64,000 nucleotides of DNA from Candidatus Nomurabacteria bacterium. GTDB lineage: Bacteria > Patescibacteriota > Minisyncoccia > Phycocordibacterales > UBA9973. A program made the position numbers and the translations under genes. This document shows, piece by piece, positions 7,742 through 44,566 of this stretch. Location of the stretch: assembly GCA_021413905.1 (NCBI GenBank), contig JAIOPO010000004.1, forward strand, positions 1,597-65,596, written 5' to 3'. The notes under the pieces are model-generated. The model had not been told where the DNA came from, ran no database searches, and worked only from the letters and a program-made list of their open reading frames with translations. Every line of letters starts with the position of its first letter. Position 1 is the first letter of the stretch.

Positions 7742-7750
7742 AGATTAAAT

Positions 7751-9671: not shown

Positions 9672-9672
9672 T

Positions 9673-10833: not shown

Positions 10834-10891
10834 AAATATGATATAGTATATCATATAAATACTCTTATTTAAAAAGTATTTATATATAAAA

Positions 10892-13097: not shown

Positions 13098-13106
13098 AAA
13101 ATTATA

Positions 13107-24620: not shown

Positions 24621-25259
24621 ATGAAAAATCAAAAAAGTGATCAAAATTTACTTGAGCAAGAAATCTCACAAGAACTTGCCAATGCAGAAAAAATTGCAAA
24701 ACAAGTAATAGCTAAAAAAAACAGAGCTAATTCTTTAAAAGAAGAATTGGACAAAGCAAAAAAAATAAAAGTATCTAGCGTCGTTCATAAATATCAAAAC
24801 CATGCGACTACTGTTACATGGAAAGATATAGAGGAATTCAATATTAAAACCGATAAACTTCTCCTTGATATAATAGAAGAAGTTTTTCAAAAAAACAAAA
24901 CAGTTCACTCTCCAAAACAGACTTATTTTCATTCGAAAATAGAAGAGTACTCAACAGACTTTGAGGTAATCAAAAACCTTAAAATAAATACTTTTCTGAG
25001 TATTGAGGAAATAATAATACTCTGTTATGATCTTATTTTAACAGAAAGATCCGGTAGTGGGCCATTGTATAACTCGGATTTTAAAAAATCAAAAATCCTT
25101 AATCTTGGCTATATAAATCACCCAGATTTAGGACTTGCATCAATCAGACTGGAAAGAAAAAGACTAAACCATTCTGAAGGCGAAGCAAGAGAGTATCACT
25201 TGCATTTTTACAGTGAAACAAGGCGATATTACGCGGGAAATGAATTTCTCGTTAAATAA
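24621..25259 (+). CDS. Hypothetical protein
   Basis: 212-aa ORF bounded by strong terminators on both sides. It has an N-terminal coiled coil and no motif I recognise. Confidence 0.45.
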   Translation: MKNQKSDQNLLEQEISQELANAEKIAKQVIAKKNRANSLKEELDKAKKIKVSSVVHKYQNHATTVTWKDIEEFNIKTDKLLLDIIEEVFQKNKTVHSPKQTYFHSKIEEYSTDFEVIKNLKINTFLSIEEIIILCYDLILTERSGSGPLYNSDFKKSKILNLGYINHPDLGLASIRLERKRLNHSEGEAREYHLHFYSETRRYYAGNEFLVK

Positions 25260-26630: not shown

Positions 26631-27422
26631 TCAAACACTAAACACTCTTTTGGCATTTTTGATGATAGCTTCAGCCACTTCGTTCTCAGGAAGTTCTTTT
26701 ATGCGAGCAATGGCTTTCACAATTTCACACACCATATATGGTTCACAAGTTTTACCCCTATAAGGCACAGGGGCTGCGAAAGGCGCATCGGTCTCGGACA
26801 TTATATATTCCAAAGGCAAAAATCTAATAACTTCATCATAATCTGACGTGAAAGTAATAGGCCCATCAAAAGACATCGTAAAATCTATATTCATCGCGCG
26901 TTTTGCGATATTTATATCACCGACAAAAAAATGAAAATTGCCGGACAAAATAGAACCATGTTCTTTTTTATAATTTTCTAAAATATCGAGAGCGTCTTCA
27001 TATGCATCCATGCTCCCCTTTGATGGACGTGCGTGTATCATGAGAGGTTTTTTCATTTTAATTGCAAGCTCGATATGTTTCTTGAAAATTTCTTTTTGTT
27101 TTTCTTTTATATTTTCATCTGCTCCACGAAAATAATCCAATCCGCATTCTCCAACACAAACGACTTTTTTATCTTGCGCCAATATTTCATATTTTTCAAT
27201 ATTAAAAATTTCATTTGTATTATCTGTCGGATGAAGCCCAACTCCAGCCCAAACAAAATCATATTTATTGGCTATTTTTATAGCTTGTTTTGATGTCTCG
27301 TAATCCACACCGATAGTTATAGTGCTCACATTATTTTCTACCATGCGAGCAATAACCCCTTCATGGTCAGCATTGAGAGGTTCTAAATTCAAATGTGAAT
27401 GTATATCTATGTATTTCTGCAT
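26631..27422 (-). CDS. tatD: TatD-family metal-dependent hydrolase/DNase
   Basis: Motifs YIDIHSHLN, GECGLDY, PLMIHARP and ETDAPF. Confidence 0.9.
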   Translation of the reverse strand: MQKYIDIHSHLNLEPLNADHEGVIARMVENNVSTITIGVDYETSKQAIKIANKYDFVWAGVGLHPTDNTNEIFNIEKYEILAQDKKVVCVGECGLDYFRGADENIKEKQKEIFKKHIELAIKMKKPLMIHARPSKGSMDAYEDALDILENYKKEHGSILSGNFHFFVGDINIAKRAMNIDFTMSFDGPITFTSDYDEVIRFLPLEYIMSETDAPFAAPVPYRGKTCEPYMVCEIVKAIARIKELPENEVAEAIIKNAKRVFSV

Positions 27423-28897
27423 TAATCTTTTCGTAAAAACAAAGGCTCAATGGGCATTTTACCTGACTTCACTATTTCAATAATTTTTTTACTGGTTTCC
27501 GGAAGAACGGGCGTCAACATCTGACCTATATTATGCAATTTTATTACCAAATTTTTTATTATTTCCAACGCTTCTTCTTTGTTAGTTTTAACAAGTTTAA
27601 ACGGTTGTTTACTTTGAATTGTTTCATCTAATTCTGTAACATGTTCAAATACAATATTCATTGCTTCTGTAATATTAAAATTATTCATTGCAATCAATGC
27701 AGGCGTCCAGTCTTCAGACAATTGCATTTGTGGAATTTCTACAGGTTTTTCAAAATTCGTCTCCGCCATTTTCATAATTCTACTTGTTAAATTTCCCAAA
27801 CCATTCGCCAATTTTGCATTGTAACAATCTTTAAAACGCTCCATTGTCACAGGAGAATCTTCGAAAGAAGAAATTTCGGAAAGAAGAAAAAATCGCAAAG
27901 CGTCTGTACCATATTCATCCACGATATCTTTCGGATTTATAACATTACCCAAAGATTTTGACATTTTTACACCTCCTCCACCCATAATAAAACCATTGAT
28001 TATTATCTGATGAGAATTTGGCAAATCAGCTGCCATTAGCATCGCTTGCCACATTGCAGACTGAAAACGCAAATTGTCTTTTCCGCAATACTGCGTAGGG
28101 TTTCCATTTACCCAGTATTTTTGAAATTTCTCACTTGCGACAAGACTCTCCAAAGTATCCACACCTTCATCCGCCAATGTAGAAATATAATTCGTCAAAG
28201 CATCAAACCACACATACATCACATGTTCGCTATCGTTGGGCACTTCTATTCCCCACGGCATTTTATTTTTCAACCTTGAGATTGAAAAATCTTGCAAACC
28301 TCTTTCTACAAAAGATTTTATTTCATTAAATCTAAAATCAGGCACGACAAAATCCGGACGTTCTGCATAAAATTTATTCAATTTTTCTGTAAATGCACTA
28401 TATTTGAAAAAATAATTTTCTTCTTTGATTATTTCGAGCTTTGAACCCGGATGATCCGGACATTCGCCATTTTCATTTAATTCAGAATCGGTTTTTTCAC
28501 TTTCACAACCCACGCAATATTTTGTCTCATAATTTTTCTTGTAAATGTAGCCGTTGTTAAAACATTTCATCCAAAAATCTTTAGCAATGTTTTCATGTTT
28601 TTTATCTGTAGTGCGAATAAAATTCAAATCGTCGCTCATTCCAAAAATCTTCACGGATTCTTTGAAATTTAAAAAACTCTGATCTACAAATTCTTGCACG
28701 GAAATATTTTGCCCTTTTGCTTTTTCAAAAATCTTCATACCATGTTCATCCGTGCCAGTGTTAAAATAAACATCAAAATCTGCAAGCTTTTTATAACGAG
28801 CAATACTGTCAGCACGCACAAATTCAAGAGCATGACCCAAATGAAGATCTGCGTTCACATATGGCAAAGTTGTAGTAATGTAAAAACTATTTTTCAT
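27422..28897 (-). CDS. metG: Methionyl-tRNA synthetase
   Basis: It has a HIGH-type motif (PYVNADLHLGHA), KMSKS, and the zinc-knuckle region CVGCESEK...CPDH. Confidence 0.96.
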   Translation of the reverse strand: MKNSFYITTTLPYVNADLHLGHALEFVRADSIARYKKLADFDVYFNTGTDEHGMKIFEKAKGQNISVQEFVDQSFLNFKESVKIFGMSDDLNFIRTTDKKHENIAKDFWMKCFNNGYIYKKNYETKYCVGCESEKTDSELNENGECPDHPGSKLEIIKEENYFFKYSAFTEKLNKFYAERPDFVVPDFRFNEIKSFVERGLQDFSISRLKNKMPWGIEVPNDSEHVMYVWFDALTNYISTLADEGVDTLESLVASEKFQKYWVNGNPTQYCGKDNLRFQSAMWQAMLMAADLPNSHQIIINGFIMGGGGVKMSKSLGNVINPKDIVDEYGTDALRFFLLSEISSFEDSPVTMERFKDCYNAKLANGLGNLTSRIMKMAETNFEKPVEIPQMQLSEDWTPALIAMNNFNITEAMNIVFEHVTELDETIQSKQPFKLVKTNKEEALEIIKNLVIKLHNIGQMLTPVLPETSKKIIEIVKSGKMPIEPLFLRKD

Positions 28898-29963
28898 GGC
28901 TCATTCTGGCAAAAATCTTATCTTTTTCAATATCATTCAAAAATTCCATTATACAAACAGCAAAAGGAATAGCGAGTATTAAGCCCCACACTCCACCCAA
29001 ATCAAAACCGATCAACACTGCCAAAATCACAACCAAAGGAGACAAGCCGATAACTTTTCGCACTATTAAAGGAGCTAAAAGATAAACTTCAAATTGATGA
29101 ATTATTAAATATGCTCCGGCAACCATCAATGAACTGGACAATCCTCCGGACAAATACGCCAAAGCTATTGCAGGAATCATTGCTATTAAAAATCCATAAG
29201 GGACGAGTTCCACAATACCTGTCAAAATTGCAAGTAAAAATGCATATTGTATGCCAAGCAAAGACAAAACCAAATAAACCAAAATACCCACAAGTAAACC
29301 AAGCAACATTTGTCCCTTTATCCAAAGGGCTATCTTTCTGCGTGAGCGTTCCCACAAATCCACTGCATAATTTTCATGTTTAGCCGGCACAACAATACGT
29401 AAGAAATTCTCTATACCCTTTTCTTGAATAGATAAATAAAAAGAAATTATTATAATCATACCGACATTGAACAAACTTCCGAAAGCAACGGACAATGTTT
29501 GGAAAAATCCTCCGGAAAGATTTGAAATGAAAGCTTTTGAAGTTGCAAGCAATGTGCCAAGAGAAAAATTATGAGAAAGAGTATTTACAATATTTTTTGC
29601 TCCGGAGAAAGCATCATTTTGAAAGAAATCCAAGAAATTCGCATCTGGAATATATGATTCTAAAAATACTGAAAAATTATATATTTCAGTTATGAGCAAT
29701 GGAGCGAAAAGATAAAACAAACCCGCTAAAAATAAAATGGAAATAACATACAAAATAACAACAGTGGAAACTCTGCCAATACCTATCTTTTTAAATCTTG
29801 AAACAGCAGATTCCATAAAAGAAGCTATAACTATCGAGGTCAAAAAGACTAAAACAATATCTCTCAAGAAATATATTAAAAAGAAACCCAAACCCACTAA
29901 TACAGCACGAATCATTGTATTGGTAGATATGGACACATTTATATTTTTGTCTTTTTCTTGCAT
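28887..29963 (-). CDS. AI-2E family transporter (PerM-like permease)
   Basis: 358 aa and polytopic, with the characteristic C-terminal region LVELVPYGFLIAMIPAIALA...PLVVILAVLIG. Confidence 0.82.
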   Translation of the reverse strand: MQEKDKNINVSISTNTMIRAVLVGLGFFLIYFLRDIVLVFLTSIVIASFMESAVSRFKKIGIGRVSTVVILYVISILFLAGLFYLFAPLLITEIYNFSVFLESYIPDANFLDFFQNDAFSGAKNIVNTLSHNFSLGTLLATSKAFISNLSGGFFQTLSVAFGSLFNVGMIIIISFYLSIQEKGIENFLRIVVPAKHENYAVDLWERSRRKIALWIKGQMLLGLLVGILVYLVLSLLGIQYAFLLAILTGIVELVPYGFLIAMIPAIALAYLSGGLSSSLMVAGAYLIIHQFEVYLLAPLIVRKVIGLSPLVVILAVLIGFDLGGVWGLILAIPFAVCIMEFLNDIEKDKIFARMSHEK

Positions 29964-31264: not shown

Positions 31265-31762
31265 TTAGCACATTTTTGAAAGTGTTTCTTTTATCTCTTT
31301 ATTATTATGAACAATGAAAACTTGTTTTGTATCTTTATAGCTTTCAGCTAAGACAAGCATTTCTTTGTTTGGCCATAGGAGAATGTATTTTATTAAATCA
31401 AAACTAATCTTTTGTTTTGCTCCATCTGGTTTATCAAATGGCTTATCTGTATTAAAAATTCTTACAAAAGCTCTCCATACACATCTCCACTTTGGAAAAT
31501 CAAAAAATATAATTACATCAGCTCTTTCTAATCTACTAGGAAGAGTTTTTTTATAATTACCATCAATAATCCATTTGTCTTGTTTTACAAATGGCTCTAC
31601 TGCATTTTTAAATTCCATTTTTGTGGAATATACTTCTTTCCAGTCTTTAGTCCAGTACAATTTATCAAGATGCACCACTGGTAAATCTAATTTCTTTCCA
31701 AGCTCATTTGCCAATGTAGACTTCCCTGATCCAGATACTCCAAAAATAGTTATTCGATCCAT
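31265..31762 (-). CDS. P-loop NMP-kinase-like protein (adenylate kinase / topology-modulation FlaR-like family)
   Basis: It has Walker A (IFGVSGSGKSTLA) and a length of about 165 aa. Confidence 0.65.
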   Translation of the reverse strand: MDRITIFGVSGSGKSTLANELGKKLDLPVVHLDKLYWTKDWKEVYSTKMEFKNAVEPFVKQDKWIIDGNYKKTLPSRLERADVIIFFDFPKWRCVWRAFVRIFNTDKPFDKPDGAKQKISFDLIKYILLWPNKEMLVLAESYKDTKQVFIVHNNKEIKETLSKMC

Positions 31763-31795
31763 AAAATTATTCTATCACAGAATTCCAATAACTCA

Positions 31796-31815
31796 ATCTA
31801 CGCCATGGCGTAGAT
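31796..31815. repeat. Perfect 20-bp palindrome ATCTACGCCATGGCGTAGAT (copy 1)
   Basis: The sequence is self-complementary as read. It lies between the Cas2-like gene stop (31823) and the kinase-like gene promoter. Confidence 0.9.
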
Positions 31816-31822
31816 ATAAAAT

Positions 31823-32200
31823 CTACATACTACTCTTTTTTGTATCATAAGGTTTAGCTAATTTAAAAGTTTTAAAGTTATCCCCTATTTTTATTTCTTT
31901 CAAATAGCTCGTAAAATCTTTCGGTAAGGGTGAAGGTCCTACCCAAACACTTTTTTGAATCATTACATAACCGAACTTAATTAAATGCCTACGAAACCAA
32001 TCGCGTTCTTTCTTTTGCTCACTAGGAATGTCGTACATGATGATTAAATTTTTTACAGAATCTTTTTGAAAAGGTGACAAAAAAGAGCCAAGATAAAGCC
32101 GCTTTGGATTTTTTATTATTGAATTTTTCTTTTCGCTAATTAAAATGGGTAAACCAAAAGAATTTACTTTTACACCTTTATAATATTTAGACATGAACAT
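31823..32200 (-). CDS. Small Cas2-like / PaaX-central-domain-like protein (orphan)
   Basis: The segment NLIIMYDIPSEQKKERDWFRRHLIKFGYVMIQKSVWVG follows the Cas2 ferredoxin-fold pattern (hydrophobic-YDI ... helix ... G-x-x-x-Q-x-SV). The window holds no CRISPR array and no other cas gene. The start may be the second ATG (32194). Confidence 0.4.
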   Translation of the reverse strand: MFMSKYYKGVKVNSFGLPILISEKKNSIIKNPKRLYLGSFLSPFQKDSVKNLIIMYDIPSEQKKERDWFRRHLIKFGYVMIQKSVWVGPSPLPKDFTSYLKEIKIGDNFKTFKLAKPYDTKKSSM

Positions 32201-32288: not shown

Positions 32289-32933
32289 TTAATAACTAAA
32301 GTCTTGTATCTTTAAAAATACAAGATTATCTTTTTTATTATCGTCATAAAAACCATTTATAAATTTCTCGAAAACATCCCATTCTTTATGGTATCCATAA
32401 ATAAATTTATTATATTGTTTTAAATATTTTGGCAAAAATTTCATAAACGCAAATTCAGAAAGAATATAATGAGTTCCAATTTGAATATCACTTAATTCAA
32501 TACTTTTCTTTTTAAAAGGATTTTCTATCAAAACATTTTTTGTTGCTTGATTTATATCTTTTTCAAAGTCTTTATTTGTAAAATATAAATTTTTAACGTA
32601 ATTATATTCTTTTTTATAATCATTATTATTTTCAATATTTTCTTTTTGCCAATCAAAAACTAGAATATGACTTTCATTAAGATTTTGATTTTTAATAGAT
32701 CTTTTTACTCTATTTTTAAAATTATTACCTTGAGGAATTGCTTTTTTACCACGTGCAATATTTTCTGAATAACCAAGAGCTAGGTATGTTGAAATTGCTG
32801 GAACATCTGGAATAAATATTCCTAAATTTAAATACTCATCTGAATATTTTTTTAATATCCTATCAATAACCTCTTGTTTAAAGTAGCCATTACCAGGACT
32901 CATCCCTATAACTAAAAAATCTTCTACGTTCAT
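32289..32933 (-). CDS. tRNA-dependent cyclodipeptide synthase (CDPS), NYH-type
   Basis: FLVIGMSPGNGYF matches the CDPS catalytic-Ser motif (G-[IM]-S-P-x-N-x-[YF]-F). HYILSEFAFM matches the Y-x-x-x-E motif. YGYHKEW matches the Y-H pair of the NYH subfamily. The roughly 215-aa length is typical. Confidence 0.8.
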   Translation of the reverse strand: MNVEDFLVIGMSPGNGYFKQEVIDRILKKYSDEYLNLGIFIPDVPAISTYLALGYSENIARGKKAIPQGNNFKNRVKRSIKNQNLNESHILVFDWQKENIENNNDYKKEYNYVKNLYFTNKDFEKDINQATKNVLIENPFKKKSIELSDIQIGTHYILSEFAFMKFLPKYLKQYNKFIYGYHKEWDVFEKFINGFYDDNKKDNLVFLKIQDFSY

Positions 32934-32935
32934 TT

Positions 32936-34264
32936 CTAATTCAATTTATTTTTTATATAAGAAATTAATTCAGAAATTTTTATTCTTTCTTGGTTTCCGG
33001 TATCTCGATCGCGGATAGTCACAGTATCCAAAAGCTCTGGATTTTCACCAAGGGTGTCGAAGTCGATGACGATGCACCACGGCGTGCCGATTTCGTCTTG
33101 TCGGCGATAACGCTTGCCGATGTTGCCATTGTCATCCCAAGCCACACGGCCGAATTCTTTTTTTAACATAGAAAATACTTCCCTACTTTTTGATACTAAT
33201 TCTGGTTTATTTTTCAACAGTGGAGACACAGCACAAAGCACAGGGGCAATTTGTGGACGAAGTTTTAAATATATACGAACTTCTCCACCCATTTCATCTT
33301 CAGTATATGCAGATAATAATATAGCTAATAATGCCCTCTCTACACCAAATGAAGGCTCTATCACATGTGGAGTAATCTTTTCGCTGTTCTCCTCGTCTAC
33401 ATATTCAAGCTTGTGTATCTTCAAATCAAAATCTCCTCGATATGCAAGACCGAAAAGCTCTTTTCGGCCAAAAGGATAATCAAACTCAAAATCTACTGTG
33501 CGTTTTGAGTAGTGTGCCAAATCTTCTGATACTACTTCAAGCTCGTGTACTTTATTCATATCAATACCCACGCTACTCATCCATAAATGCATTTCATTTT
33601 TCAATTCATTAAAAGCATTTTCCCAATTATTTTCTCGTACAAAATATTCTATTTCCATTTGCTCAAATTCACGAGAACGAAAAATAAAATCTCTGGGTGT
33701 AATTTCATTTCTAAAAGCTTTACCAATTTGAGCAATACCAAATGGAATCTTTGGATGATGTGTGTCCACAATGTTTTTAAAATTCACAAATATTCCTTGT
33801 GCAGTCTCTGGGCGAAGATATGAAATAGCAGAGGAATCTTCTGAGGCTCCCACTTTTGTTTGAAACATCATATTGAATTGGCGAGCTTCCCCTAGTTTGC
33901 CTCCACAATCAGCACAATTATTTTTATCTTCAATTTGATCTATTCGAAAACGATGCTGACATTTTTCACATTCTACCATTGGATCTGCAAAATGCTCCGC
34001 ATGTCCGGTAGCTTGCCACACTTCTTGACGCATCAAGATTGCAGCACGAATACCATACATATCTTCACGATTAGAAACAAATTTTTCCCACCAAGAATTT
34101 TTTATATTATTTAAAATTTCATTTCCAAAATGCCCATAATCCCAAGTGCCCGCAAATCCCCCGTAAATTTCAGAACCCGGAAAAATAAAACCGCGTCTCT
34201 TACAAAGACTCACTATTTTTTCCATTAACTCACTTTCTTCTTTTTTATTTTCTTTATTAGACAT
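32936..34264 (-). CDS. glyQS: Glycyl-tRNA synthetase (class II, homodimeric GlyQS type)
   Basis: Supporting segments are RRGFIFPGSEIYGGFAGTWDYG, the class II motifs (FRNEITPR, GVERALLAIL) and the C-terminal anticodon-binding domain. Confidence 0.95.
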   Translation of the reverse strand: MSNKENKKEESELMEKIVSLCKRRGFIFPGSEIYGGFAGTWDYGHFGNEILNNIKNSWWEKFVSNREDMYGIRAAILMRQEVWQATGHAEHFADPMVECEKCQHRFRIDQIEDKNNCADCGGKLGEARQFNMMFQTKVGASEDSSAISYLRPETAQGIFVNFKNIVDTHHPKIPFGIAQIGKAFRNEITPRDFIFRSREFEQMEIEYFVRENNWENAFNELKNEMHLWMSSVGIDMNKVHELEVVSEDLAHYSKRTVDFEFDYPFGRKELFGLAYRGDFDLKIHKLEYVDEENSEKITPHVIEPSFGVERALLAILLSAYTEDEMGGEVRIYLKLRPQIAPVLCAVSPLLKNKPELVSKSREVFSMLKKEFGRVAWDDNGNIGKRYRRQDEIGTPWCIVIDFDTLGENPELLDTVTIRDRDTGNQERIKISELISYIKNKLN

Positions 34265-34276
34265 ATTTATATTAAA

Positions 34277-36217
34277 TTATTGTATAACAGTATTGGACCC
34301 TGCCGAAGCATTCGAATCATTTGATAAACTTATATTAAGCGTGCCTTTATTGACCTGTATATTCACATTAGCAAAATCATCGTGTCCCGTCAAAACGAGA
34401 TTATTTACCAATGTCGGAGATGTAGCCACTTGAGAAGAAGAAGGAGTAAATGCTAATTGAAAAGATATTTCTCTATCGGCTTCTGTAATACCAGTTCCGC
34501 GTGGAATACCGCCGATATTCCAAACTAAATCATGAGTTGAAGGATTGTAATTCAAATCTTCATTTGCCGGAGAAATACTTCCGACAAATCTGACCCATGG
34601 TGGCAATGTCGTCATGAGTTGAGCTTTGGAAATATTGTTGGCTGTATTTGAAAGAGTCCAGACTACTGTATAGGTAGTCTCTTGTCCGACTTTCGGAGGA
34701 ATGGGTCCATTATTTTTAAATGAACCGGAATAATACAAAATTTTATTTGCAATACCTAAATCAGAAGTGATACGAATTATTTTTGATTCAGAATTATTTA
34801 ATTGTTGCAATACATTGCCTTCTACAGCTTGTTTGCCATTTATAGAAACATCGATATTTACAGTGGGTGAATTTGCAATACTCCCTGCAGAAAATAAAGA
34901 TATTGGAGAAAATGAAAAAGACAAAGCACCAGACGCTCCGGGTTCTACTTCAGACAAAGTACTATCAGCATTTTTATCCCAAATAATAGTATTTTGATTT
35001 GAATCATAAAATCCACCTTGTGTATTTATGGTTTTCCTATTCACAGCATTGCCGGAAATCTTTGCGACAATTTGCAAATCATTTACTTTTGTAGGTAAAT
35101 TATTTACCCAATTTATTTGTCCTTGTATTGGTGTTTTAGAATCCACTGCGTATTCTCTTTGGTATACTCCATTTATAAAAAGCTGAGCATCGATAAATGG
35201 TTTTTTGATATTTATAGTATGACCTAAAGAATTAAATACAATACCTATCAAAGTCTTGTCATTGTCAGCTTGTGAACCACTCCAAACATGAAAAGTTTTA
35301 TCTTCACCATCGGAAACATCGGACATTTTGCCTAAAATTGTAATATTGCTTTCTGCTCCTGGAGCCAAATCACCCAAAGACCAAACGTTATTACCAAAAG
35401 AAGGCATCGGTATTGCTTTATCAAATTGAAAACCAATAGGATAATCCACTCTTAACAACATTTTATTTACTGTTTTTGTTGAATTGAGAGTCGCTTTTAT
35501 ATTCAAAGTAATATCTTGATTCGGACTTGCTTCTGTCGGCGCATCTATGGATAAATTAATCGGGGCTGAACTTATAGACACAGGATAATCTTTTTCTTTT
35601 ACGAAAATAGCATTGGAGCCTTCGACCCTGTATTCAATTGAAATCTTTACTGGTTGAATACTGTCTTGTTCTCCAAACAAAACTATTTTTGTATTTTCAG
35701 TATGAACAGATCCGGCTGATACCGTTCCGATTGATTGACGCAAATGCGACATATTTCCGGAAGCATCACTGGAGCCTTTTGGATAATCAATAACGAGATC
35801 CACTAATTGCAAATCGGCATTATTTCTATTTGTTATTTCTATTTGCAAAGGCAATTCTTCCCCACCGGCAGTAAAAGTATTTCCCAAAACAGCAATATCT
35901 ATATTGTCATTCGACACTGTATTTCCGCCAAAGAAAAAAGAATACGAAGCAAATAACATAGCCAATATAAAAAAACCTATCGAGAACATAAAGAATTTCT
36001 TGAACATTGAAGTTTTCATAAAAAATTTATTCATAGTATTTTCTTGTTTTTCCGTAGCCCAAACATCAGGCACGTCTATTTCTTTTGATTCTGAAAAACT
36101 CGTATGATATGGGTCGTGCACTTTATAACCCTTGCTAAACAATCTGACTTTCATCTCTTCAAGTCTATTTAATTTACCTTTATCATTTTCTAACATCTGA
36201 TAATTATACCATTTCAA
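34277..36217 (-). CDS. Large membrane-anchored protein with repeated beta-sandwich ectodomains (hypothetical)
   Basis: 646 aa. A short cytoplasmic N-terminus is followed by one TM helix (FFMFSIGFFILAMLFASYSFFF) and a long extracytoplasmic region with CARDB/DUF11-like character. Confidence 0.55.
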   Translation of the reverse strand: MKWYNYQMLENDKGKLNRLEEMKVRLFSKGYKVHDPYHTSFSESKEIDVPDVWATEKQENTMNKFFMKTSMFKKFFMFSIGFFILAMLFASYSFFFGGNTVSNDNIDIAVLGNTFTAGGEELPLQIEITNRNNADLQLVDLVIDYPKGSSDASGNMSHLRQSIGTVSAGSVHTENTKIVLFGEQDSIQPVKISIEYRVEGSNAIFVKEKDYPVSISSAPINLSIDAPTEASPNQDITLNIKATLNSTKTVNKMLLRVDYPIGFQFDKAIPMPSFGNNVWSLGDLAPGAESNITILGKMSDVSDGEDKTFHVWSGSQADNDKTLIGIVFNSLGHTINIKKPFIDAQLFINGVYQREYAVDSKTPIQGQINWVNNLPTKVNDLQIVAKISGNAVNRKTINTQGGFYDSNQNTIIWDKNADSTLSEVEPGASGALSFSFSPISLFSAGSIANSPTVNIDVSINGKQAVEGNVLQQLNNSESKIIRITSDLGIANKILYYSGSFKNNGPIPPKVGQETTYTVVWTLSNTANNISKAQLMTTLPPWVRFVGSISPANEDLNYNPSTHDLVWNIGGIPRGTGITEADREISFQLAFTPSSSQVATSPTLVNNLVLTGHDDFANVNIQVNKGTLNISLSNDSNASAGSNTVIQ

Positions 36218-36864: not shown

Positions 36865-39800
36865 TTATTCTATCACAACCTTAAATACCAATTCGTTGAT
36901 TTTTATTTCATTGCCGTCATTTTTTGTAAAATCAATTTGTTTAACGCCGACAATCTTCAAAAATTCATCTTTGAATTTATTTATTATTTCTTTGCCTTTT
37001 TCATCAGTATCAATTTTCAACACTATCAAATCACTAGGCATCAAACCTTTTGTTTTCCGCATATCTTGCACAGCTCGCACTAGCTCGCGATAATTGCCTT
37101 CTATTTTTAATTCTGGTGTGATTTCTGTATCTAATTTTATAACATCTTCTACATTTTCAGATTTAATAAATTCAACATTTTTTATATTCAATTCTTCTTT
37201 TAGAATCTCTATATAATTTATATTAAATTCATGATAAAAAATTTGAATATTACTCAAAGGCTGTCTTACGGGAATTCCTGATTTTTGTCTTTCTTTTAAA
37301 CCAGATGAAACAATTTCTCTGACTTGTTTCATATTTTCTAAAATTTCATCATTAAAATTTAAAATATTTACTTCCGGCCATTCTGCCAAATGTACAGATT
37401 CTACATCATTTTTATTTTTTAATTTTTGCCAAATATCTTCGGACGCAAAAGGCGCAAATGGGGCCATAATTTTCACTAAATTTTTCAACACAAAATACAG
37501 AGTTTGTTTTGCTTCGATATCTCCATTTTTAATTCTCTCTCTTGAACGACGCAAATACCAAGTAGAAAGATCATCGATAAAATCACGAACAGCACGCACT
37601 GGTTCCAATGTTCTATAATTGTCTAAATTATCTGTTACAGTTTTATTCAATTCATTTAAACGCGCCAAAATCCATTGATCTAAAATATTTTCAGATTTTA
37701 ATTCTGTGAATACTTCTAATTGTGGATCTCTATAGAGTTCATAAAAAGCGACGACGTTATAAAGCAAACCAAAAAATTGACGATGAATTTCCATGACAGT
37801 TCTCTCATCAAAATTCTTTGATTCACCCGGTTGATTTACGGAATACATCCAAAGACGAATAGTGTCCGCGCCATATTTTTCAAACATAAGCCAAGGGTCC
37901 ACGACATTTCCTTTTGACTTTGACATTTTTTGTCCATTTGCGTCTAAGATATGCCCCAAACAAACGACATTTTTATAAGCATTACCAGGTTCATCAGAAA
38001 GTAAATTTATAACTGCATGCAAAGTATAAAACCATCCGCGAGTCTGATCTATCGCTTCAGAAATATAATCCGCTTTTATCGGATTAAAATCAATCTCTTT
38101 ACCCAGAATATGATTTTGAGCATAAGGCATAGCCCCAGAATCAAACCACACATCCATCACTTCTCCCGTGCGAATCATTTTTTGACCATTATCTTCCAAA
38201 ACTATCTCATCAATATATGGCTTATGAAAATCCAATTCGTAATTTGCATTATGAGGTAATGGCACAAAATCTAATTCCTTGATTTCAGCATTTTGAAAAA
38301 AATGAAAATCTTTTTTATCTAAAATCATTTTTAATGTTTCTTTTACATTTTTTCCTTCAATACCTGCACACAACAACCAAGCAGGACCACCATGAGTCAC
38401 AAATAAAATATTTTTGTCTTTGTATTTTTCTTCAACATCATACAAAAATGCTGTCATACGATTTTTCACATCTTGATATGATTCATCATCCTCTACATGC
38501 AAATTAAAATTTGCTTCCGTTTTTATGTGATATTTATGATATTCTTCCCAATTCTTTCCATCAAAAGAATACGCTCCTATTTCTCGCAGTCTTTCATCTT
38601 TGATAATATTTTCTTTATTCAATCCCAATTTTTGAGCGACGATTTCCGCAGTTTCAATAGTACGAGTAAAATCAGAAGTAAATATCAAATCAATTTTTTT
38701 ATCTTTCAGAAATTCTGCGGAAATTTCCACTTGCTCTTTACCGTCTTTATCTAAATGCCATTTACCTGAAGGTTGTGTGCAAATTATATTTTTTTTATTT
38801 GCTTCTGTTTCTCCATGTCTCATTACAAAATATTTATTGCCTGATTTTTTAGTATATTTTTTCAAATCAGCCAAAGAACCGACAACTTTATAAGAGCCAT
38901 CTTCTTTTTGCCAAACAGGTATCGGTGTACCCCAATATCTATCTCTGGATATAGCCCAATCTTTTATACCATCAAGCCATTCACCAAAACGTCCTTTTTT
39001 AATATATTCCGGCTCCCAATTTATTTTTTCATTTCCTGCGAGCAATTGTTCGCGAAGCGCACTCATGCGGAAATACCAAGAAGAACGTGCGTAATAAATG
39101 AGCGGTGTATCACAACGCCAACAATGCGGATAGCTATGCATATAATTTTCTTTTTTAAACAAAAGACTTCGTTCTGTTAAATGATTTATTATATCCACAG
39201 CCAAAGTAGGTTTACCGTTCTCATCTGTTTCTTTTACATATCTACCTGCTAAGAAATCCGTACCGATGACGAATTTTCCTTCTTCATTTACTGTATGATA
39301 TTTAGGCAAACCGACTTTTGTACCAAGCTCAAAATCATCTGCTCCATACATAACAGCGGTATGCACTATACCCGTACCGTCAGTAGTCGTAACAAAATCC
39401 GCTCCGTAAATTTTAAAAGCATTTTTTATTTTTTCATCATCTTTAGCCAAATCTTTTAAATATGGGAACAATGGTTCGTATTCCATACCAATCATTTCAC
39501 TGCCTTTATGTTCAGCAATAATTTCATACGGCTGATTTAATATTTCCAATCTTTCTTTTGCCAACACTAAAATCTCATCACCGACTTTTGCCTCAACGTA
39601 AATAAAATCATTACCAACTGCAAGTCCGACATTTCCCGGTAAAGTCCAAGGCGTTGTCGTCCATGCCAAAAAATATGCGTGATCGAAATTTTTAATTTTA
39701 AATTTTATATATACGGACAAATCTTTCACATCCTTATATGCTCCCGGTTGTGAGAGTTCATGACTTGAGAGGGCCGTACCACAACGTGTACACCAAGGCA

Positions 39801-40344
39801 AAACCTTAAAATCTTTATATAAAAATCCTCTATCATTTATTTTCTTTACAACACCCCACAATGCTTCTATATAACTGTTTTCATATGTCACATATGGATT
39901 TTCTTGGTCAATCCAATAACCCATTCTTTCTGTAAATTTATTCCAAAATTCCAAATATTCCCAAACATTCTCTTTACACTTTTGATTAAAAAGTTTTACA
40001 CCATAATTTTCTATTTCTTTTTTTGATTTTAAACCAAGAGCTTTTTCCACAGCCAATTCAACAGGCAAACCATGTGTATCCCAACCCCCTTTTCTACCAA
40101 CATGAAAACCTTGCATTGTTTTGTAACGAGGAACAACATCTTTGAAAGAACGAGCTTCTAAATGATGAATACCTGGTTTACCATTTGCTGTCGGTGGTCC
40201 TTCATAAAAAATATAATCTCCTTTTGGATTATCTTTTCGATTTATCGTCTTTTCAAAAATTTTATTTTCTTTCCAGAATTCTAAAACTTTTTCCTCACGC
40301 AAAGCTGTCTCACTTTTTGTAATATTTTCTTTATTTTCAGACAT
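36865..40344 (-). CDS. ileS: Isoleucyl-tRNA synthetase (type 2) carrying an inserted histidine-phosphatase (PGAM-like) domain
   Basis: IleRS features are the HIGH region (PPTANGKPGIHHLEA), the editing-domain motif WTTTPWTLP, DVWFDSG and KMSKS. Between PIPVW and DFHKPYID there is a segment of about 190 aa with RHGETEAN, FTSDFTRTIETA, REIGAYSFDG and VTHGG. Confidence 0.95.
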   Translation of the reverse strand: MSENKENITKSETALREEKVLEFWKENKIFEKTINRKDNPKGDYIFYEGPPTANGKPGIHHLEARSFKDVVPRYKTMQGFHVGRKGGWDTHGLPVELAVEKALGLKSKKEIENYGVKLFNQKCKENVWEYLEFWNKFTERMGYWIDQENPYVTYENSYIEALWGVVKKINDRGFLYKDFKVLPWCTRCGTALSSHELSQPGAYKDVKDLSVYIKFKIKNFDHAYFLAWTTTPWTLPGNVGLAVGNDFIYVEAKVGDEILVLAKERLEILNQPYEIIAEHKGSEMIGMEYEPLFPYLKDLAKDDEKIKNAFKIYGADFVTTTDGTGIVHTAVMYGADDFELGTKVGLPKYHTVNEEGKFVIGTDFLAGRYVKETDENGKPTLAVDIINHLTERSLLFKKENYMHSYPHCWRCDTPLIYYARSSWYFRMSALREQLLAGNEKINWEPEYIKKGRFGEWLDGIKDWAISRDRYWGTPIPVWQKEDGSYKVVGSLADLKKYTKKSGNKYFVMRHGETEANKKNIICTQPSGKWHLDKDGKEQVEISAEFLKDKKIDLIFTSDFTRTIETAEIVAQKLGLNKENIIKDERLREIGAYSFDGKNWEEYHKYHIKTEANFNLHVEDDESYQDVKNRMTAFLYDVEEKYKDKNILFVTHGGPAWLLCAGIEGKNVKETLKMILDKKDFHFFQNAEIKELDFVPLPHNANYELDFHKPYIDEIVLEDNGQKMIRTGEVMDVWFDSGAMPYAQNHILGKEIDFNPIKADYISEAIDQTRGWFYTLHAVINLLSDEPGNAYKNVVCLGHILDANGQKMSKSKGNVVDPWLMFEKYGADTIRLWMYSVNQPGESKNFDERTVMEIHRQFFGLLYNVVAFYELYRDPQLEVFTELKSENILDQWILARLNELNKTVTDNLDNYRTLEPVRAVRDFIDDLSTWYLRRSRERIKNGDIEAKQTLYFVLKNLVKIMAPFAPFASEDIWQKLKNKNDVESVHLAEWPEVNILNFNDEILENMKQVREIVSSGLKERQKSGIPVRQPLSNIQIFYHEFNINYIEILKEELNIKNVEFIKSENVEDVIKLDTEITPELKIEGNYRELVRAVQDMRKTKGLMPSDLIVLKIDTDEKGKEIINKFKDEFLKIVGVKQIDFTKNDGNEIKINELVFKVVIE
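38266..38835 (-). other. Histidine phosphatase superfamily (branch 1) domain embedded in ileS
   Basis: My hand mapping places the RHG codons at 38820-38812. The domain ends at ...KELDF (38266). Confidence 0.75.
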
Positions 40345-41779: not shown

Positions 41780-42409
41780 TTATTCTACTTTCCAAGAATT
41801 CTCATCAAAATATAACTTTGATGCATCCATATCCTTCTTATAAAAGAGAACACTGTAACTTTTTCCATTATAATCGTAAAAAACAAACTTAATCTCTTCA
41901 AAATTAAGAACTAATTTAAAATCTGTTGATTTTTCTTTTTCAACAACAAAACTAACATAATAAGAATTAGCTTTATCTTGTTTTAAATAAGTTATAAACA
42001 AAAGATCTTTATCTGATGGAATTCTCAAGATATTTTTTTTACCATTGTTAAATTTATATTCAACATCGTCAGATTTATAAGCTTTAGCAGAATAATACTT
42101 TTCATCTCCTGGGTATTTTACAAATACATCAAAATCTTTTATATTTATTGCTTTCTTTAGAACTGTTAAAGAAACCTGTAAAGTATACCCAAAACCATTT
42201 ATAGTTTTATTTTCTAAGTTAATATCTGTATGTGTATAAGAGATACTTGGACTCCCAGTAAGACTTATAATTCTACCATTAATTTCTGGCTTAATTGGCC
42301 AATAAGGCCTACTAGCAATGATTAAAGCTAAAATAGAAATTACTATAGTTGCCCAATCTTTAAAAGAAAAAGATTCACAATTATTTACCATAAAATTTAT
42401 TATACACAT
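41780..42409 (-). CDS. Hypothetical membrane-anchored protein
   Basis: 209 aa with one N-terminal TM helix (WATIVISILALIIA). I recognise no motif. Confidence 0.4.
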   Translation of the reverse strand: MCIINFMVNNCESFSFKDWATIVISILALIIASRPYWPIKPEINGRIISLTGSPSISYTHTDINLENKTINGFGYTLQVSLTVLKKAINIKDFDVFVKYPGDEKYYSAKAYKSDDVEYKFNNGKKNILRIPSDKDLLFITYLKQDKANSYYVSFVVEKEKSTDFKLVLNFEEIKFVFYDYNGKSYSVLFYKKDMDASKLYFDENSWKVE

Positions 42410-42420
42410 AATATTAATTA

Positions 42421-44136
42421 CTACATTCTCTCCGGCAATTTAATGCCCAAAAGCCAAAGACCATTTTGCATTGTGGTTAGGAATGATTTTGTGAGAGAAA
42501 TATAATACGGAGAATATTTGTCTTCCGAATTTAAGATTTGTGTTTGTGCGTAAAAAGAATTGAAGCTGGAAGCCAAAGCTGTCAGATATGTGGCAATGTG
42601 ATGCGGTTCTAGTTCTTCATATGAGTGAACGACGACTTCCGGGAAACGATAAATTATTTTTTCTAATTCAGAAATTTGTTCAGGAATTTCTGAAGCTTTT
42701 TTTATTTCACCAGCTTTCACGAGGATTGATTTCGCGCGCATTGCGGAATATTGTAAATATGGACCGGAATCCCCTTCAAAAGAAATTGATTTTTCAAAAT
42801 CATAAATAATATCAGAACCCAAAGATGAGCGAAGAATAGAATATTTCAAAGCAGACACGCCAACAATTTCTGAAACTTTCTTTTTTTCTTCTTCGGTGAA
42901 ATCTCTGTCTTGGATTTTCTCCAATACTACATCCATAGAATCCCGCAACAAAGATTCCCCTGTTATGACATTGCCTTTTCGTGAAGACATCTTGCCGGAA
43001 GCAAGGCGCATCATACCGTGCGTGATATGTTTCATTCTTTTTTCAAGTTCCGGATGCATCAATGCAATCGCTTGCTGGACGACTTTCATATATTCTCCTT
43101 GCTCGATGGCTGTATCAACTATAGAAATATCCGGATTTTCTTTTTCAAACTTTATCATTGTCAGTCCTATTTCTTTCGTCTCATAAAGCGGTATGCCTTG
43201 AGAAGTCAAAAATACTCGCGTATGAAGTTTCGGATTATATTTTTCTGCGTGAAAAACTATAGCGCCTTCTGATTCTTCAAAGACATTTGGCACATTTGCG
43301 CGGACAATTTTCTCACCTATAGGCGCCATCTCACTTTCAAAAAAATAATAATCAAATTTTGTGCCAAGAATTTTATAAATTTCTTCAAATGCTTCAAGAG
43401 TAACTTTCCTACCCCAATCATAAATTTTATTTATTTCCGCATCGCTCCTGTCGTAAACTTTTTTATTTATTATGTCGATTTCTTTTTTCGCTTCTTGGTC
43501 ATTGTCATACAAATCACTGCCTTTTGAATAGCACTCACCAATATATTGAGCAAGAACAGAAGCAGGCGCAGATTCATCTGCCGGAGCACCTGCTTTATAC
43601 ATCCCATAAATCGCTTTCGCAATATGCGGACCGACGTCGCCTTGATAATTTGCACGGATAGTTTTCGCTCCGGAGAATTCCACAATTCTCGAAACTGATT
43701 CCCCAATAGCATTACTCATCAAATGCCCAATATGAAAAGGCTTGAAAGGATTTGGCTGAGTGTATTCCACCATTACTTTTTTGCCAGACAATACTTCATT
43801 TTTCCCCCAATCTTCTCCTTTATGTAAAATATCTTTTACATAATCACTGAAAAATTCTCTTGTTAAATAAAAATTAATAAACCCTGCGCCGGCTATTTGA
43901 ATAGTGTCTACTCCTACTATTCCTTTTTCATTTGTATCTTCATAAAGTTCAGCAATTAGTTTCTCTGCTAAATCTATTGGTTTCATTTTTAATTTTTTCG
44001 CGCAAACCATAGCGACATTTGTAGAATAATCCCCATTCTTTAAATCTTCCGGATGCTCCACGACAAAATTCATCTCTTCGTTTATATCAAGTTTTTTTAA
44101 CGCCTCTTTTATTAAATTTTCTATTTGTTGTTTCAT
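42421..44136 (-). CDS. argS: Arginyl-tRNA synthetase
   Basis: It has a HIGH-type motif (PNPFKPFHIGHLMS), the MSSRKG (KMSKS-like) motif and the C-terminal DALR anticodon-binding domain. I prefer the start at MKQQIENL (44136), directly after the dut stop. Confidence 0.94.
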   Translation of the reverse strand: MKQQIENLIKEALKKLDINEEMNFVVEHPEDLKNGDYSTNVAMVCAKKLKMKPIDLAEKLIAELYEDTNEKGIVGVDTIQIAGAGFINFYLTREFFSDYVKDILHKGEDWGKNEVLSGKKVMVEYTQPNPFKPFHIGHLMSNAIGESVSRIVEFSGAKTIRANYQGDVGPHIAKAIYGMYKAGAPADESAPASVLAQYIGECYSKGSDLYDNDQEAKKEIDIINKKVYDRSDAEINKIYDWGRKVTLEAFEEIYKILGTKFDYYFFESEMAPIGEKIVRANVPNVFEESEGAIVFHAEKYNPKLHTRVFLTSQGIPLYETKEIGLTMIKFEKENPDISIVDTAIEQGEYMKVVQQAIALMHPELEKRMKHITHGMMRLASGKMSSRKGNVITGESLLRDSMDVVLEKIQDRDFTEEEKKKVSEIVGVSALKYSILRSSLGSDIIYDFEKSISFEGDSGPYLQYSAMRAKSILVKAGEIKKASEIPEQISELEKIIYRFPEVVVHSYEELEPHHIATYLTALASSFNSFYAQTQILNSEDKYSPYYISLTKSFLTTMQNGLWLLGIKLPERM

Positions 44137-44137
44137 T

Positions 44138-44566
44138 TTATTTATGTCCTGTGCTACCTTCCCTGCTATCACCACGCACCGTATCAGTCAAATCTTCCAC
44201 TTCTTCTACAATATCACAATGTTCGAATTTTTGTATCAACATCTGAGCAATTTTATTTCCTTTTTCCAAAGTCACTTCCTTATCAGAAGTATTTAGCATA
44301 CACATAATTATTTCTCCGCGATAACCAGCATCAATGACTCCACCCATAACTTTTAAACCCATATTAAAAGAAATACTGGATTTATCCCAAATCAAACCCA
44401 CATATCCTTCGGGTATTTCCACAGCCACACCAGTATGTATTTTCATTTGTTTTCCGGCAGGAATCGTAACATCATTCACAGTATAAAAATCCATACCCGC
44501 ATCCCCCGGATGTCCGTGTGTCAGCAATTTTGCATCATTATTTAATTTTTTTACTTTTAGTTGCAT
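44138..44566 (-). CDS. dut: dUTP diphosphatase
   Basis: Motifs GDAGMDF, GVIDAGYRGEI and RGDSREGSTG. Confidence 0.93.
   Translation of the reverse strand: MQLKVKKLNNDAKLLTHGHPGDAGMDFYTVNDVTIPAGKQMKIHTGVAVEIPEGYVGLIWDKSSISFNMGLKVMGGVIDAGYRGEIIMCMLNTSDKEVTLEKGNKIAQMLIQKFEHCDIVEEVEDLTDTVRGDSREGSTGHK

Follow-up and report, generated by a model that had tools for sequence, protein, structure and literature searches.

An NYH-type cyclodipeptide synthase beside glyQS in a Nomurabacteria genome, and a probably positional adjacency

A cyclodipeptide synthase gene in a housekeeping array

Directly after the glycyl-tRNA synthetase (GlyRS) gene glyQS in the window, by which we mean the whole 64-kb stretch of DNA that was analysed, lies an open reading frame (Table 1) that encodes a genuine cyclodipeptide synthase (CDPS) of the NYH type. 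An earlier note on this DNA had recognised the enzyme from the motifs GMSPGNGYF, HYILSEFAF and GYHKEW, all of them present in the translation, and profile searches bear out that reading: the protein scores 77.1 bits against Pfam PF16715 (E = 2e-21; gathering score 27) and 102.1 bits against the NCBIfam profile TIGR04539 (E = 3e-29; cut-off 45).

Table 1. Coordinates of the CDPS gene and of features around it in the window
Feature	Position	Strand	Description	Evidence
MetRS	27422..28897		within 12 kb of CDPS	
P-loop kinase-like protein	31265..31762	(-)	between CDPS and M16 peptidase gene	Pfam
Cas2-like/PaaX_M protein	31823..32200	(-)	between CDPS and M16 peptidase gene	Pfam
CDPS ORF	32289..32933	(-)	NYH-type cyclodipeptide synthase, 214 aa	Pfam and NCBIfam matches, AF2 model
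Spacer	32934..32935	(-)	exactly 2 nt between glyQS TAG stop and CDPS ATG	sequence
glyQS	32936..34264	(-)	dimeric-type glycine--tRNA ligase, 442 aa	NF003211, 557 bits (cut-off 312)
IleRS	36865..40344		within 12 kb of CDPS	
ArgRS	42421..44175		within 12 kb of CDPS	

The spacing described in the earlier note, with the CDPS starting 2 nt past the glyQS stop (TAG, 32936-32938), is exact. A gap of this size is too small for a promoter or terminator, so the two genes are, judging from their spacing, very probably co-transcribed, as had been proposed; and since no Shine-Dalgarno-like motif is visible upstream of the CDPS ATG on inspection of the sequence, translation of the CDPS is probably coupled to that of glyQS. 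Gaps of 1-22 nt are nonetheless the norm along this 22-kb co-directional housekeeping array, and tight gene spacing is also found at many other CDPS loci. Promoter-like sites number 50 against 49.9 expected, and both promoter and terminator counts are at or near shuffle expectation. Only one glyQS is found in the 64-kb window, and its place inside a conserved housekeeping array argues for its being the housekeeping copy; it is the probable upstream source of read-through transcription.

Three further aminoacyl-tRNA synthetase (aaRS) genes lie close by, as the note had pointed out (Table 1), and there are no tRNA genes in the 64-kb window. The Cas2-like/PaaX_M and P-loop kinase-like genes that follow the CDPS have a GC content of 29-30%, compared with 33-37% in the flanking genes, and are missing from the two syntenic relatives L058 and L076, where the M16 peptidase gene comes directly after the CDPS. 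The tailoring genes whose absence had been remarked on are indeed lacking: a Pfam scan of the genes from 19161 to 47458, about 13 kb on each side, found no cyclodipeptide oxidase, P450, methyltransferase or prenyltransferase domain, four ORFs in that scan having no significant Pfam match (34277..36217, 41780..42409, 24621..25259 and 19161..20027), and at about 70 homologous loci Pfam likewise found no tailoring enzyme in the genes directly flanking the CDPS. The locus therefore lacks the adjacent tailoring enzyme that marks a CDPS-dependent biosynthetic gene cluster, and the product is probably left unmodified. In this it differs from YvmC and AlbC, which have partner tailoring genes: yvmC is followed by that of the P450 CypX, and AlbC adjoins the oxidase AlbA/B.

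Catalytic residues, fold and substrate pockets

The catalytic residues are S12, N15, Y156, E160, Y181 and H182. S12, within GMSPGN, corresponds to AlbC S37 and is invariant in 33 aligned homologues and in all 83 aligned related loci; Y156, E160 and Y181 (AlbC Y178, E182 and Y202) are likewise invariant in the 33 homologues, and the full set of S, N, Y, E, Y and H is identical in the window protein and 80 of the 83 related loci. From work on AlbC, we take Y181 to act in the cyclisation step. The NYH signature (AlbC N40, Y202 and H203) is intact as N15, Y181 and H182, and the nearest solved structures, by profile search and Foldseek, are all NYH, so that both the type assigned in the note and its expectation that Ser, Tyr and Glu would survive proper alignment held. 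The residue register was verified on the published alignment of OGY85379.1.

The AF2 model of the protein is of very high confidence (pLDDT 96.7, pTM 0.92), and its top matches in the PDB are exclusively CDPSs (TM up to 0.83; 0.81 to YvmC and 0.77 to AlbC), which points to the Rossmann-type fold related to the catalytic domains of class Ic aaRSs. A profile search ranks BtCDPS, YvmC and the cLL synthase of Staphylococcus haemolyticus (Shae-CDPS) first among solved relatives; the first two we also take to be cLL synthases. Together with AlbC (cFL) and Rv2275 (cYY), these enzymes (YvmC being that of B. licheniformis) appear from the predicted structure to share their fold with the window protein (TM 0.73-0.83) and have the same catalytic Ser/Tyr/Glu/Tyr and N40/Y202/H203 signature, although their identity to it is only 15-19%. 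Compared with AlbC, the protein lacks about 25 residues at its N-terminus, hence Ser12 rather than Ser37; the conserved motif IPDxPAxSTYxxLGY sets the clade apart from the solved NYH CDPSs, and the host, unlike theirs, is a reduced CPR-type genome.

The ping-pong mechanism of CDPSs is established and was worked out for AlbC, and by analogy the same use of aminoacyl-tRNAs would be expected here. The predicted helix 57-82 is basic (R61, K63, K64, K73, R75, K77, R78 and K81) and may be an alpha4-type tRNA-binding patch like that of AlbC. The first aminoacyl-tRNA would be bound through this helix, its aminoacyl group entering pocket P1 and being transferred onto Ser12; a second aminoacyl-tRNA would then place its residue in pocket P2 to give a dipeptidyl-enzyme, whose cyclisation, aided by Tyr156, Glu160 and Tyr181, would release an unmodified 2,5-diketopiperazine. 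Conserved residues and predicted fold alike suggest that the enzyme is probably active.

Pocket positions were transferred via the published OGY85379.1 alignment and a family alignment. P1 is formed by V8, G10, F40, P42, W95, F163, M164 and Y179 (VGFPWFMY), and P2 by A130, N133, V134, E137, K183, W185 and D186 (ANVEKWD). The clade-wide P1 consensus across the 83 related loci is [IV]G[FLM][PA]WF[LM]Y. The nearest P1 motifs are those of CDPS 82 (LGFPWFMF, cPL), CDPS 83 (VGLPWFFF, cPR) and CDPS 77 (LGFPWLVF, cLV/cLL/cLI; PMC5816076, Suppl. Data Set 4), and on these grounds the first residue of the product would most likely be Pro or Leu, or another hydrophobic residue. CDPS 82 (Streptomyces varsoviensis) and the cPX group have a near-identical P1, but the P2 of CDPS 82 (LKAGQFE) is unrelated to that of the window enzyme and the two are not phylogenetically close. 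Gondry et al. (2018; PMC5816076) caution that enzymes of differing specificity (Pro, Leu, Phe and Trp) have P1 motifs of this kind and that P1 alone is an uncertain basis for a cPX prediction, and they report that many CDPSs from metagenomes showed no activity in E. coli. A glycine specificity read from the pockets was considered and rejected: P1 keeps Gly35 and is therefore open, and neither pocket motif resembles those of CDPSs that use Gly.

Two members of the same clade, OGY85379.1 (Kerfeldbacteria) and OGI43181.1 (Moranbacteria), have been listed as NYH enzymes with an unpredictable product (Gondry et al., 2018; PMC5816076, Suppl. Data Set 4). They are 37-47% identical to related loci, have similar P1 motifs (VGLAWFLY and IGFAWFLY), and share K204 and W206 of P2 with the window enzyme. 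Both are extended C-terminally by a domain of about 250 residues, termed an 'ABC transporter' domain in that study (PMC5816076), which we find to be SBP_bac_3 (PF00497); the window protein is without it, and tblastn found no separate SBP_bac_3 partner gene in the window (E 0.4 or worse). The clade is thus already known, its members being listed, uncharacterised, in Gondry et al. (2018), and the identical protein already carries a CDPS annotation in NCBI.

[quoted passage not shown] Like the window enzyme it comes from a CPR genome, but it belongs to the XYP subfamily, is remote (profile E 1e-9; TM 0.62; PDB 7QAT and related entries) and has unrelated pockets (GAYAWELY/FEWKYTR). Because it is XYP and remote, its product is uninformative for the window enzyme, and it was rejected as a guide to the product.

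Gene neighbourhoods and probable mobility across related loci

GlyRS directly precedes the CDPS in 2 of 68 other loci, L058 and L076, both of them close syntenic relatives that have in common with the window the array IleRS-RecO-646aa-GlyRS-CDPS-M16. The glyQS-CDPS junction is homologous in all three, with a gap of 1 nt in L076 and 8 nt in L058, and GlyRS identity to the window copy is 80% in L058 and 65% in L076. Within the same subclade the CDPS also lies between dnaK and dnaJ (L002, L004 and L084), behind lysS (L003), or alone (L078, L080, L082 and L085). All-vs-all clustering of ORFs within 6 kb at 72 CDPS loci, and Pfam searches of the immediate neighbours at about 70, revealed no conserved partner; the commonest upstream neighbours are MarR/AsnC-type regulators, in 6-7 loci and confined to loci mostly labelled archaeal.

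The earlier note had described the CDPS as 'hard-wired' to a tRNA synthetase, had thought the linkage possibly new and had seen in it a hint of a Gly-containing product; as functional readings these are not supported. In its fullest form this idea would have Gly-tRNA(Gly) channelled from GlyRS into a diketopiperazine such as cGG or cGX, which we consider very improbable. The 2-nt gap does imply co-transcription and probable translational coupling, the junction is kept in two relatives, and some NYH CDPSs do take Gly (CDPS 8, cGV; CDPS 78, cFG; CDPS 102, cCG). The adjacency is, however, limited to 3 of about 70 loci including the window, all in one syntenic lineage, whereas homologues that are just as close and share the P1 pocket are found in unrelated contexts behind dnaK or lysS, or alone, and gaps as short as this are usual. 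Nor are aaRSs enriched beside the CDPS relatives: the synteny survey counted 5 among 137 neighbours where 2.7-4.1 would be expected, and these differ in specificity (GlyRS, LysRS, SerRS and one class II D/K/N enzyme), so that the homologous loci do not show the aaRS co-occurrence that characterises an aaRS-linked natural-product locus. The pocket speaks the same way: the sole described Gly-specific P1, that of CDPS 87 (LFVAWIVI), is blocked by Phe35, while the motifs of Gly-using NYH enzymes (LGFMIIWF/ASIQDPL, LGLAWIGC/VAYHRLA and VGYPSIFF/SAIKDPT) are unlike VGFPWFMY/ANVEKWD, which matches Pro/Leu-type pockets. In the literature on CDPSs in CPR, Patescibacteria or DPANN, or with glycyl-tRNA synthetase, mostly abstracts, we found neither the clade's product nor a link to aaRS genes discussed.

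The CDPS has the lowest GC content of the 55 genes in the window (22.5%, GC3 11.6%, with neighbours at 33-37%), and in 68 of 83 related loci its GC is lower than that of its flanks. Its identity is 75% to L076 and 62% to L058, whereas RecO is 65% identical to L058 and 40% to L076; the host genes (GlyRS and RecO) thus place L058 closer and the CDPS places L076 closer. The low GC and this discordance fit a mobile accessory gene and are suggestive of horizontal transfer of the CDPS. Because a crude NJ tree gives L058 a near-basal place in the subclade, an ancestral position behind GlyRS followed by repeated relocation is also conceivable. The only plasmid matches are distant Legionella CDPSs (29-30% identity), and there is no match in the INPHARED GenBank phage records or IMG/VR.

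So low a GC and GC3, together with the lack of a visible upstream Shine-Dalgarno-like sequence, could also mean that the gene, once transferred horizontally, is now decaying or silent and has no current function. This we consider extremely improbable: the ORF is intact and full length, catalytic and pocket residues are all conserved, the structure is predicted at very high confidence, and the gene still occupies its place in relatives where the genes around it are by now 40-80% identical, which argues for long-term purifying selection.

Members of the clade, several hundred of which are present in metagenomes, occur in genomes labelled CPR bacteria, DPANN archaea, Melainabacteria, Dependentiae and Bdellovibrionota. 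About half of them are fused to SBP_bac_3, a domain that binds amino acids as ligands; the window protein is a short form and falls in a distinct subclade of such forms, marked by P67 and M186. The 33 aligned homologues have clade-specific invariant residues (D43-P45-A46-T49-Y50-G54-Y55). This breadth among reduced genomes, the clade-specific residues, the fusions and the consistent lack of tailoring genes alongside would all suit a protein that uses the CDPS fold for another aminoacyl-tRNA reaction, such as aminoacyl transfer to another acceptor, in the core physiology of ultra-small symbionts. That reading appears improbable, since 80 of the 83 related loci retain the residues of the full CDPS cycle, Y181 included, both pockets are present, and the gene is patchy and mobile rather than core, with varying contexts and atypical GC.

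We therefore consider it likely that the gene encodes an active, stand-alone NYH CDPS, that it is a mobile accessory gene, and that its adjacency to GlyRS is positional and does not reflect substrate supply. A horizontally mobile CDPS gene would have entered the ancestral genome of a narrow Nomurabacteria-like lineage between glyQS and the M16 peptidase gene, and would be expressed by read-through and translational coupling from the housekeeping array. Lodging inside a compact array with read-through expression would make the adjacency positional and inherited, which is what it looks like, confined as it is to that one lineage.

Implications for the clade

The main result is that a tempting over-interpretation of the tRNA-synthetase linkage is removed: with the linkage put down to genome compaction and shared ancestry, it gives no basis for guessing a Gly-containing product. 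A bolder proposal, that the clade makes one conserved, untailored diketopiperazine by which ultra-small or parasitic microbes interact with hosts or signal between cells, and that lodging behind glyQS, lysS or dnaK was selected because it ties output to translational activity or aminoacyl-tRNA supply, we regard as unlikely. What emerges is an uncharacterised NYH CDPS clade of reduced-genome bacteria and archaea, with a conserved first-substrate pocket and SBP_bac_3 fusions in about half of its members, which could yield new cyclodipeptides and show how diketopiperazines are used where secondary metabolism is almost absent.

An NYH-type cyclodipeptide synthase behind glyQS

The protein encoded directly downstream of glyQS starts with MNVEDFLVIGMSPGNGYF and also contains the motifs HYILSEFAF and GYHKEW. 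It scores far above threshold with the Pfam cyclodipeptide synthase (CDPS) model PF16715 (E 2e-21, 77 bits; gathering score 27) and with TIGR04539, 'tRNA-dependent cyclodipeptide synthase' (102 bits; cut-off 45), and NCBI already lists this very sequence (P0001, the window protein's record) as 'tRNA-dependent cyclodipeptide synthase [Candidatus Nomurabacteria bacterium]'. In an alignment of 33 homologues, G-M-S12-P-G-N15, Y156, E160, and Y181-H182 are invariant; these are the catalytic Ser, Tyr, Glu and Tyr of CDPSs (S12, Y156, E160, and Y181) together with the N/Y/H signature of the NYH subfamily. The enzyme belongs to a known family and subfamily, and is correctly annotated.

An AlphaFold2 model built on the same alignment (mean pLDDT 96.7) was compared with the PDB using Foldseek, and the top matches were all CDPSs: YvmC (TM 0.79-0.83), Shae-CDPS and BtCDPS (about 0.8), AlbC (0.77), and Rv2275 (0.73), with XYP enzymes below the NYH ones (0.62 for 7QAY, the Parcubacteria enzyme that has been characterised). 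When PDB sequences were searched with a profile, the solved CDPSs ranked in the same way, with BtCDPS, YvmC, and the S. haemolyticus cLL synthase at E 2e-20 to 6e-17 and ParcuCDPS at about 1e-9. Since NYH enzymes are nearest in both searches, the NYH assignment of the earlier note is right. The Parcubacteria CDPS that it mentioned is also real (CDPS 90, which makes cHP/cHE; PMC5816076), but it is an XYP enzyme and is uninformative on the product of the window CDPS.

What had been observed of the locus was borne out in every detail, including the 2 nt between the glyQS stop codon (TAG, 32936-32938) and the CDPS ATG, the presence of all three other aminoacyl-tRNA synthetase (aaRS) genes within about 12 kb, and the lack of oxidase, P450, methyltransferase or prenyltransferase domains in the genes scanned from 19161 to 47458.

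Several neighbouring genes also drew attention. The fourth gene downstream of the CDPS, within the same co-directional run, encodes an AI-2E family transporter, and a 347-aa gene follows the M16 peptidase gene at the equivalent position in L076, a syntenic relative; because no such transporter recurs beside other CDPS homologues, export of the CDPS product by it is pure speculation. Two genes between the CDPS and M16 peptidase genes, one for a Cas2-like/PaaX_M protein (125 aa) and one for a P-loop kinase-like protein (165 aa), are absent from L076 and from a second syntenic relative, L058. The sequence TGgTATAAT, an extended -10-like motif, abuts the ATG of the Cas2-like ORF, whose transcript may therefore be leaderless, and at five other loci, too, PaaX_M-like genes lie no more than a few kb from the CDPS. 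In the 1159-aa IleRS, residues 506-676 form a complete histidine-phosphatase domain (PF00300, 118 bits) with the RHG motif 'VMRHGETEAN'; this insertion interrupts the class I catalytic domain immediately ahead of the DVWFDSG region. The L058 IleRS is of similar length (61% identity), and PF00133 and PF00300 are combined in about a dozen database clusters, mostly short fragments.

Features of the window and of loci encoding CDPS relatives (L numbers)
Feature	Coordinates	Strand	Remarks
Low-GC block, ten genes	5368..15267		~10 kb
MetRS	27422..28897		<12 kb from CDPS
AI-2E family transporter	28887..29963	-	PF01594, 155 bits
Cas2-like and P-loop kinase-like genes	31265..32200	-	
CDPS, 214 aa	32289..32933	-	ORF list and sequence, PF16715, TIGR04539
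glyQS, glycine--tRNA ligase, 442 aa	32936..34264	-	NF003211, 557 bits
IleRS	36865..40344	-	<12 kb from CDPS
ArgRS	42421..44175		<12 kb from CDPS
248-aa ORF	53945..54691	-	
Fused CDPS	L045:10001-11326		
Fused CDPS	L037:5019-6458		
dnaK-CDPS-dnaJ	L084:1262-5165		
dnaK-CDPS-dnaJ	L002:2867-5421		
dnaK-CDPS-dnaJ	L004:8093-11564		

Substrate pockets and predicted product

The two substrate pockets have been defined by AlbC positions 33, 35, 65, 67, 119, 185, 186, and 200 (P1) and 152, 155, 156, 159, 204, 206, and 207 (P2) (Gondry et al. 2018, PMC5816076). The supplement of that study includes two members of the window-type clade, OGY85379.1 (P1/P2 VGLAWFLY/TAVGKWT) and OGI43181.1 (IGFAWFLY/TGVGKWE), and its alignment provides the register. 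When transferred, this gives VGFPWFMY for the window P1 (V8, G10, F40, P42, W95, F163, M164, Y179) and ANVEKWD for P2 (A130, N133, V134, E137, K183, W185, D186). Over 83 loci, P2 varies and P1 is nearly constant, [IV]G[FLM][PA]WF[LM]Y, so that the first substrate is probably the same throughout the clade.

Among characterised enzymes, the most similar P1 motifs belong to CDPS 82 (LGFPWFMF, cPL), CDPS 83 (VGLPWFFF, cPR), CDPS 77 (LGFPWLVF; cLV, cLL, and cLI), and Nvec2 (LGFPWYIF, cWL) (PMC5816076). In CDPS 87, the sole Gly-selective P1 described, Phe at position 35 blocks the pocket, whereas the window CDPS keeps Gly35. These comparisons argue against the Gly-containing product proposed earlier; our best guess, held with low confidence, is a cyclodipeptide with Pro, Leu or another hydrophobic first residue. 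Gondry et al. (PMC5816076) stress that a P1 motif of this type is not reliably predictive, hence our low confidence.

By analogy with the ping-pong cycle of AlbC, a first aminoacyl-tRNA would bind, possibly along a basic helix (57-82 of the model) bearing eight Arg/Lys residues, and its aminoacyl group would pass from P1 to Ser12; a second aminoacyl-tRNA would then supply the P2 residue, and the dipeptidyl-enzyme would cyclise. None of the genes scanned at the window locus, or next to the CDPS at homologous loci, encodes a tailoring enzyme, and so a bare diketopiperazine is the expected end product.

Genomic context of the CDPS genes

The earlier note had seen in the GlyRS junction a functional, possibly new, coupling to an aaRS. 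We surveyed 75 loci from species-representative genomes and 10 around close metagenomic homologues. When the window's neighbours were searched against the first 75 by tblastn, GlyRS lay beside the CDPS in L058 only; a second case, L076, whose CDPS is 75% identical, came from the metagenomic set, so the adjacency is rare. The order RecO, 630/646-aa protein, GlyRS, CDPS, M16 peptidase is common to all three, the synteny with L058 reaches upstream to IleRS, and homology is plain to see in the DNA of the junctions, where the gaps measure 1, 2, and 8 nt.

CDPSs as similar to that of the window as the GlyRS-linked ones occur elsewhere. In three relatives (P0016, L002, and L004) the gene is wedged between dnaK and dnaJ and splits what is normally a grpE-dnaK-dnaJ operon; in L003 it starts 5 nt after lysS; and four others (P0003, P0008, P0010, and P0012) have 122-600 nt of upstream non-coding DNA, are not coupled to a housekeeping gene, and have no aaRS among the genes called at their loci. 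The CDPS gene seemingly lodges repeatedly just behind housekeeping genes.

Pfam scans found aaRS domains in 4 of the 68 nearest upstream ORFs and 1 of the 69 downstream (two GlyRSs, in L058 and L076, one LysRS, one further class II D/K/N enzyme, and one SerRS), against 2.7-4.1 expected by chance on the assumption that 2-3% of the genes in such small genomes encode aaRSs. There is thus no enrichment. Moreover, Lys has never been observed in CDPS products (PMC5816076), yet LysRS adjoins one CDPS, and an aaRS neighbour is therefore clearly no guide to substrate. Nor is the tight spacing special: neighbouring genes are usually -38 to 64 nt apart in the co-directional run from 25527 to 47458, the genes flanking glyQS are 12 and 2 nt away, and many CDPS homologues abut whichever gene precedes them. 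The GlyRS adjacency is real and, given the 2-nt gap, probably implies co-transcription, as had been proposed; as a gene position it was inherited within a restricted lineage with a compacted genome and is best explained as incidental, and a functional link is not supported.

Possible exchange of the gene and spread of the clade

The CDPS has the lowest GC content of the 55 window genes (22.5%, GC3 11.6%; neighbours 33-37% and 25-29%). CDPS genes fall below their flanks in 68 of the 83 loci, by 8-15 points in the window's subclade. Identity to the window is higher in L058 than in L076 for GlyRS (80% and 65%), RecO (65% and 40%), and the 646-aa protein (54% and 43%), and the reverse for the CDPS (62% and 75%), a mismatch that points to exchange of the CDPS, or to its evolving at unequal rates, in an otherwise conserved syntenic position. 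In a neighbour-joining tree the three GlyRS-linked CDPSs belong to a single short-form subclade, and genes with other surroundings branch between them. Together, these sequence-based features would fit a gene that relocates or is exchanged. No copies were found on phage or viral contigs, and a plasmid search returned distant Legionella CDPSs only.

Two other regions of the window stand out in composition. The ten-gene low-GC block (GC 23-27%, GC3 14-19%; window mean 33%) may be a horizontally acquired island. The 248-aa ORF, at 48.6% GC and 52% GC3, far above all other window genes, has long non-coding flanks (712 and 166 nt) and may not encode a protein.

A 2018 catalogue lists the clade as 'NYH, unpredictable', with a C-terminal 'ABC transporter' domain noted in some members (PMC5816076); no paper that we found takes up its product or a link to an aaRS. 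A phmmer search of 1.84 billion cluster representatives returned 361 relatives at E <= 1e-3 and just 15 at <= 1e-30, and members occur in genomes labelled CPR, DPANN, Melainabacteria, Dependentiae, and Bdellovibrionota, MAG labels that should be taken with caution. About half of the clade carries a fused C-terminal domain of about 250 aa (examples lie among L006-L056, and further ones are proteins P0076, P0078, and P0087), with no N-terminal extension seen before the catalytic motif. The three database relatives with the fused architecture match PF00497 (SBP_bac_3), and GYGV and WPTPER are among the residues conserved; the window has neither such a fusion nor a separate gene of this kind. What is mildly interesting about the clade is its broad spread, its conserved first-substrate pocket, its SBP_bac_3 fusions, and its tendency to be sited right behind housekeeping genes.
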